The position numbers were made by a program, and so were the translations under genes. The notes beneath the pieces are model-generated. The model searched no databases, had not been told where the DNA came from, and worked only from the letters and a program-made list of their open reading frames with translations. Shown in pieces: positions 48,862 to 49,575 of a stretch of DNA of 64,000 bases. Source of the stretch: Eledone cirrhosa (Eukaryota); assembly GCA_964016885.1 (NCBI GenBank), contig OZ024741.1:381672001-381736000 (forward strand). The letters are read 5' to 3'. Each line of letters starts with the position of its first letter. Within the stretch, counting starts at the first letter, position 1.

Positions 48862-49575
48862 ATACTATAGAGTAAAGCATGTCCAGAGAATTATTTGATA
48901 ATATAAATACATCAACTCTACTCCCAATCAGTATAATTAACCACGCAAAAAATCAATTAGATCTATAAGAATAAAAGGCATCTATAAAGAAACAGTAAAT
49001 AAATACGCTATTGTGGCGTCTTCGCGTACAACCGCGATAGAATATTTACCCAACATTTCATCAGCACGTGGAAATTAATTAAATATACGGTCAACCATAC
49101 ATAATTAGGTAAAAATGATATACATACCAGGATTAAATCACTAAATCCCGACCCTAGGGTTTCGCTCACTTTTGAGATACCTTATTAAGGTTCATACTCG
49201 AGTTTAGAGCCCTTCAGGGGATAAACTCGCTAGGGCATATTATTTTCCGAAGTGACCCCCGCCAAACACGAATTCAAAATGGTTGAGCACTCTGACTTGG
49301 CAGTGGTCAAGCCAGGAAGGGTGTGATTGGTTGCTTACGGCGAGTGGGTTGGTTGCTAGAAATCGCAGACCAACATCGCCCAAATTTTCATCTCAACCTT
49401 ATGGGAGATTATTAAATATAAATATTTACACATACACCAATTAAACAAAGTCACAGATATATATGTGTTTTGGCAACTTTTGACGGTGTGGCTCAATGGA
49501 GAATTAATAAATGAATCAGAGCAGAATACTATAGAGTAAAGCATGTCCAGAGAATTATTTGATAATATATATACA
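48862..49575 (-). mobile_element. Second locus of the HHR-bearing unit: one 664-bp unit plus ~45-bp terminal redundancy
   Basis: ATACTATAGAGTAAAGCATGTCCAGAGAATTATTTGATAATATA at 48862 and 49526; homologous to 28001-28675; (TA)n flanks. Confidence 0.85.
49145..49222 (-). ncRNA. Type-I hammerhead with extended stem II (one core substitution)
   Basis: AUCCC-CUGAAGG-GCUC...GAGC-GAA-ACCC(UA)GGGU-C-GGGAU; all three stems perfectly paired, GUC triplet. Confidence 0.8.

Follow-up and report, generated by a model that had tools for sequence, protein, structure and literature searches.

The copy at positions 48,862–49,575 of the window, the 64,000-nucleotide stretch of DNA analysed here, raises the question of how a non-coding sequence came to lie beside a (TA)n tract as one complete unit followed by a short repeat of its own beginning, and from what kind of RNA it was copied. 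A sequence-only reading had proposed that reverse transcription, primed at a fixed site next to (TA)n, ran more than once around a circular or multimeric RNA, and had taken "one unit plus 45 bp" as the mark of rolling-circle copying. The reading that we favor, with a probability of about 0.65, is that of a protein-less tandem element with a covarying type I hammerhead and two (TA)n start sites, which is likely copied in trans by a Penelope-like reverse transcriptase (RT)-endonuclease from monomers that the hammerhead likely cuts out.

The element and its hammerhead

The window is AT-rich and dense in (TA)n tracts, and belongs to a 3.0-Gb animal genome. The copy consists of one full retrozyme unit of 664 bp (48,862–49,525), whose RNA sense is the minus strand, and of a second pass of 50 bp (49,526–49,575, minus strand) that is 98% identical to the unit start in a self-comparison within the window and terminates in the longest TA run of the unit. 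In the letters of the window, a (TA)n target tract (48,817–48,861) adjoins the fixed end, which is the RNA's 3' end, and a (CA)n(TA)n tract (49,576–49,631) adjoins the far end. The wider flanks, (CT)n(AT)n at 48,729–48,861 and (AT)n(AG)n at 49,576–49,690, are roughly inverted with respect to each other. A type I hammerhead was found mid-unit, as had been claimed, at 49,144–49,224 on the minus strand, with its predicted cut between 49,150 and 49,149. Because of this strand and position, the RNA would be the minus strand with the fixed left end on its 3' side; the cDNA would have run in the plus direction from 48,862, which is start site 1. The unit further contains a "tail" (49,413–49,525, minus strand), whose left edge is the second fixed start for opposite arms elsewhere and served as no start in this copy, and the block most conserved between sub-families (49,353–49,426, minus strand; conservation 0.83–0.90), which lies 3' of both starts in the RNA and is a putative protein-binding site.

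The diverged copy some 20 kb away (28,001–29,182, minus strand) is of sub-family A and comprises a 675-bp unit and about 500 bp of a second pass. It is 79% identical to the copy at 48,862, and both begin at ATACTATA adjoining (TA)n, in agreement with the initial observation. The description as one unit plus 45 bp suits the copy at 48,862, with its 664 and 50 bp, but not this one. The hammerhead in its first pass (28,292–28,374, minus strand) has an intact CUGAUGA core, and that in its second pass (29,001–29,083, minus strand) has a decayed core and stem II. A microsatellite-rich stretch with a unique core is repeated in the flanks of this copy, at 27,816–27,860 and 29,178–29,240, and is possibly a long target-site duplication (TSD).

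Genome searches returned 4693 first-look candidates for the family, 40 of which were scored. The sub-families are B (684-bp reference copy; it includes the copy at 48,862), A (675 bp), C (658 bp), which is young with copies 94–98% alike, and the distant E (489 bp); further distant relatives are present. The element consists of tandem, non-coding units with a GC content under 50% and without LTR, primer-binding site (PBS) or polypurine tract (PPT). No long ORF was found in any frame of three natural multimers, nor an ORF remnant or a tRNA match in the unit. The exact start motif next to (TA)n occurs at 198 places for B, 417 for A and 44 for C, and exact tail starts next to (TA)n at 324 places for A and B together. 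To avoid a bias toward long copies, arms were sampled by this start motif, which gave 97 B arms (from the first 100 of 198 places), 100 A arms (from the first 100 of 417) and 38 C arms (from the 44 places). The conserved block and the two-start architecture also occur in the 489-bp family E and others (loci L338, L333–L351, L046, L015 and L208).

The identity of the hammerhead rests on covariation and not on Rfam: the window holds no Rfam hammerhead at the gathering score, and a sister copy gave a single match over the motif, to HH9 (18.9 bits, E = 1.5). The minimum free energy fold of a sister copy is a three-way junction with an unremarkable folding energy (z = –0.36). For the covariation analysis we aligned 81 of 177 distinct hammerheads, counting sequences rather than events and applying no correction for phylogeny. 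Pairing was found in 90.0% of cells, as against 82.4% after shuffling and 30–43% in controls with slid partners; two-sided changes occurred in 8 of 15 pairs, and none of 500 shuffles reached the covariation score. The signal stems from about five lineage-level compensatory changes. Stem I occurs mostly as UGUUUC/GAAACR or UGUCUC/GGGACA in A, URUCCC/GGGAUU in B and UAUCUC/GRGAUA in C, stem II mostly as GUUCG/CGAAC, GCUC/GAGC and UCCG/CGGA, and the stems of family E differ in sequence and are fully paired. Exceptions are the terminal pairs, which fail in B, and pair 10.1–11.1, which is U–U in C. As primary sequence near the motif is no better conserved (windows of 0.40–0.60) than the unit average (0.63), structure is what is kept, and the earlier proposal that the structure was under selection is borne out. 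Its details fared unevenly: all of the quoted stem sequences are present, but the CGACC strand of stem II in the 28-kb copy is mismatched, the usual form in sub-family A being CGAAC, and the change in stem III between the two window copies is confined to the loop and is no covariation.

The core CUGANGA...GAAA varies chiefly at N7 and N17, and CUGANGA was read in 60/63 B, 29/30 C and 70/93 A parsed motifs, sorted only roughly into families. The copy at 48,862 carries CUGAAGG, a private A9G change seen in one of the 63 parsed B-type hammerheads, which is likely decay after insertion. Lineage-level variation in A, B and C clusters in the 10 nt 3' of the predicted cut, where three of the seven commonest C polymorphisms fall, as do five diagnostic sites of A and, in B, a duplication of 8 nt; this cluster may be a trace of events at the template's 5' end.

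Starts and far ends of the arms

Arms begin either at position 1 (site 1) or at the tail site, 95–113 nt further 3' in the RNA. Inverted segments accompany 37/97 B and 21/100 A arms, and these inverted arms are unequal in length with offset starts. Where a site-1 arm has an inverted partner, this partner starts from the tail site in 33/37 B, 18/21 A and 17/22 C cases; most of the others are fragments or are cut off, and in C a single partner starts at site 1. Conversely, 23 of 30 tail-start loci have a partner; 18 of these partners start from site 1 and none from the tail site. At each of the two starts, a short stretch of TA matches the target. No start was seen, however, at the longest TA run of A and B, which is 9 nt long and lies at 35–48, so that microhomology alone does not place the starts. 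The idea of fixed priming next to (TA)n holds in that starts are fixed and far ends variable, but there are two starts instead of one, and priming set by microhomology alone was not supported. An ordinary genomic copy of one unit would have no conserved block downstream of its start, where a cut-to-cut monomer, a circle or a multimer would have it. The end maps suggest that the tail known from Penelope-like elements (PLEs) arises because two starts are used, strictly one on each target strand.

The ends have neither TG..CA termini nor short TSDs, and no LTR or terminal inverted repeat was found. An LTR element, a MITE or a DNA-level satellite with a chance hammerhead-like motif is therefore very improbable: two-armed copies do resemble inverted repeats, but their arms are unequal with offset starts, 3' ends are fixed and 5' ends ragged, and dispersed copies do not exceed 2.5 units. 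An LTR retrozyme was ruled out, as there is no type III hammerhead, no TG..CA LTR and no 4-bp TSD, and a SINE or other LINE-dependent element was ruled out by the two internal starts, the inverted arms and the lack of a tRNA match in the unit.

Far ends vary as the sequence-only reading expected for ends opposite a fixed 3' side, but arms longer than one unit account for only 40 of the 197 A and B arms sampled without length bias (17/97 B and 23/100 A), and their overhangs range from 41 to 1033 bp. Unit plus 45 bp is one mode within this range. The +45 region falls on the unit's longest TA run, and short first-pass arms end there too, so that it is a hotspot rather than a rolling-circle signature. 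The predicted cut of family E lies at position 78, and its ends at +41–54 may be cut-related.

Far ends also pile up at the predicted cut. At the first cut, 20/59 B arms stop within the 25 nt before it and 0/39 in the next 25 (Fisher p = 1e-5), five of them within 1 nt of the predicted position; the majority of stops fall before it, by up to 25 nt and often at TA-rich spots. At the second cut, 10/20 site-1 arms of A, B and C stop, and 0/10 in the next bin (p = 5e-5), against a background of 43 stops in 344 at-risk bins (12.5% per bin); these numbers are small, and two A loci in the set look like one duplicated locus, without which the count is 9/19. The first-cut pile-up is strong only in B (A, 6/67; C, 4/22 with 2/18 in the next bin), and tail-start arms have none (5/43 with 3/38 in the next bin). 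The stops suggest that hammerhead cleavage shapes the template in a genome, against one in vitro result.

The template

That reverse transcription ran more than once over one and the same unit was upheld by two kinds of evidence. In A and B, tandem passes carry concordant haplotypes: at non-CpG sub-lineage sites, they were discordant at 7/134 sites in B (54.8 expected) and 0/83 in A (28.6 expected), and opposite arms in B were discordant at 4/72 non-CpG diagnostic sites. In the young sub-family C, for which 131 segments were compared, tandem passes had in common nine locus-private variants (seven loci) in 3983 sites, where 0.11 were expected, and opposite arms gave ten counts (eight variants, five loci) in 4751 sites, where 0.14 were expected. 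Divergence in C is 2.2% both between tandem passes and between opposite arms. Passes copied from two different units of a source locus would be expected to have fewer private variants in common than opposite arms have, and to be more divergent; neither was the case, which argues that the same unit was copied twice. Some of the shared private variants could come from gene conversion between neighbouring segments, but private differences are plentiful.

On the reading of an element copied in trans, the course of an insertion would be as follows. The hammerhead would cut transcripts into cut-to-cut monomers, and a PLE protein would bind the conserved block 3' of the starts and nick both strands of (TA)n. 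Judging from the genomic pattern, one strand would then be extended from site 1 and the other from the site 95–113 nt further 3', both starts matching the target over a short stretch of TA. By the same kind of evidence, many arms would end at the predicted cut, as expected of a linear 5' end made by a ribozyme, and others would cross the cut seamlessly and copy the identical sequence variant again. Finally, far ends would be joined through TA microhomologies, most commonly at +35–60, either to the other arm or to the target. Cleavage, circles, dimer and helper are components that we infer.

Two ways of crossing the cut were weighed, a ligated circle and an end-to-end jump on a linear monomer, and we lean slightly toward circles contributing. 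Ligation is favored because junctions at the cut are seamless; the stops at the second cut are hard to obtain on a clean circle and easily explained if a single jump already exhausts the 3' end. A more specific version, which we put forward as a tentative possibility, is that the hammerhead makes the 5' end of the RT template in vivo, and that a dimeric Penelope enzyme with one fixed start per target strand crosses the cut by a jump from the 5' to the 3' end of a linear monomer. Such a pseudo-rolling circle without ligated RNA would account for the stops at the cut in the second pass.

It is unlikely that linear multimers served as the only templates. Here longer-than-unit transcripts of tandem loci, partly cut by the hammerhead, would be copied without any unit being read twice, and multimers would be renewed by duplication or conversion at the DNA level. 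The stops at the second cut (10/20) are expected of a linear dimer with a cut 5' end, junctions at the cut are seamless, and hammerhead-dead RNA is a good template for an anole PLE in vitro (PMC11167929). However, the divergence between tandem passes does not exceed that between opposite arms, private variants are shared equally in the two comparisons, and in every lineage examined sub-lineage sites are in agreement between passes. Moreover, no array longer than about 2.5 units was found in the fetched loci, although the assembly could have collapsed arrays.

We consider it still less probable that a covalently closed monomer circle was the sole template, with unit plus 45 bp as its signature, which was the original proposal. 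Such a circle would explain why the same unit is read twice and why stops at exactly one unit are enriched (26/108). Ends at +35–60 are about twice as common in second passes (17/72) as in first passes (26/227; p = 0.02), in a second-pass set that includes top-scoring matches, and coral, mussel and axolotl have related retrozymes that form circles (PMC7229834). A clean circle has no 5' end, however, yet arms stop at both the first and the second cut, which contradicts the circle as sole template. The wide range of overhangs, the minority of arms that exceed one unit and the coincidence of +45 with the longest TA run likewise speak against it.

Known relatives, the helper and the rest of the window

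The element is an abundant animal non-LTR retrozyme, probably a non-autonomous PLE, and as such of a known kind, since tandems, inverted arms, tails, a (TA)n bias, helper PLEs and circular templates have already been described or proposed (PMC7229834; PMC8557442; PMC4209133; PMC11167929; PMC13282606; bioRxiv 10.64898/2026.07.22.740005). Like the present element, metazoan non-LTR retrozymes are built of tandem units, low in GC and non-coding, that each contain a single type I hammerhead; they lack LTR, PBS and PPT and occur as monomers to short multimers; PLEs were proposed as their helpers and circles as their templates (PMC7229834; bioRxiv 10.64898/2026.07.22.740005). The units here (490–684 bp) are longer than the 150–450 bp given for most animals and lie inside the 51–972 bp range of the preprint (bioRxiv 10.64898/2026.07.22.740005; PMC7229834). 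Copying more than once around a circle has been published as a hypothesis (PMC4209133; PMC7229834).

PLEs themselves have in common with the present element partial tandems (pLTR), an inverted 5'-truncated arm, extension at one end only, (TA)n targets and a hammerhead with a short, often palindromic helix III (PMC8557442; PMC4209133). In contrast to them, the present element has no ORF, a tail of about 95–113 nt instead of 30–40, and a hammerhead that is canonical and complete, with a long insert in loop II. The Poseidon element PAc of green anole, the sole PLE tested in vitro in the sources at hand, likewise uses two internal RT starts that define a tail, extends both target strands, is predicted to act as a dimer and needs RNA that extends 3' of the starts (PMC11167929). 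Its hammerhead cleavage was not needed and its start was not homologous to the target; the accessible part of that paper reports neither homology nor a difference in starts between the strands, nor any reads that terminate at the cut, whereas here both starts have a short TA match and are strictly split between strands, and 5' ends pile up at the cut (PMC11167929).

The retrozyme papers, in the parts available, contain no maps of insertion ends, starts or truncation relative to the cut (PMC7229834; bioRxiv 10.64898/2026.07.22.740005), and in the openly accessible literature, supplements aside, we found no published map of retrozyme or PLE 5' ends onto the cut site. We accordingly found no precedent in print for the end maps, the strand split of starts or the read-twice test. 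The function of the PLE hammerhead and the spread of retrozymes via circles are stated as open questions in PMC8557442, PMC11167929 and bioRxiv 10.64898/2026.07.22.740005; a non-coding element of 490–684 nt with young copies and mapped starts and stops makes both directly testable.

This genome contains ORF-bearing PLEs that combine RT and GIY-YIG with a hammerhead-like motif and (TA)n ends. An autonomous PLE sharing sequence with the unit was sought among the PLE fragments of the window and of about 380 fetched loci, and none was found; neither the three window PLEs nor at least three other PLE families in the fetched loci have detectable sequence in common with it. Two B arms (L023 and L094) run almost directly into 5'-truncated PLE ORFs, from which nothing can be concluded, because these ORFs are of different families and PLE fragments are common in the loci.

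The PLE at 39,345–42,760 (minus strand) is near-complete, with RT and GIY-YIG, an identical terminal repeat of 93 bp, and a hammerhead-like motif near 39,590; its 3' end, some nine codons into the ORF repeat, lies on (TA)n. Two more copies, of other families, lie at 58,275–59,795 and 61,840–64,000; the latter is AT-rich, has thousands of candidate relatives and contains a Cys-rich linker that we take to be Nematis-like. Another ORF-bearing PLE family (L372, L373, L094, L329 and L300) has a long Asn-rich N terminus and a 3' motif that resembles a hammerhead; its 3' end on (TA)n lies at either of two alternative positions, and its members are often nested in the same tracts.

Several other features of the window were recorded. 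A hammerhead-like motif with a palindromic helix III (46,525–46,600, plus strand) resembles old relatives in L076 and L254, and minimal hammerhead-like motifs occur at 33,591 (minus), 36,465 (plus) and 38,004 (plus), one of them inside a large palindrome at 37,688–38,434. Further palindromes (23,508–23,671, 29,356–29,468, 30,234–30,500 and 36,732–37,311) may be two-armed insertions of other families. The segments 3,033–6,774 and 12,481–16,251 are two copies, 91% identical, of what is presumably a LINE-like element, judged by its motifs; by the same means we take 8,064–10,181, 16,595–18,151 and 53,984–56,590 to be two RTE-like ORFs and a helicase-like fragment. Finally, tRNA-like matches at 32,497, 36,831 and 37,142 probably represent one tRNA-derived SINE family.
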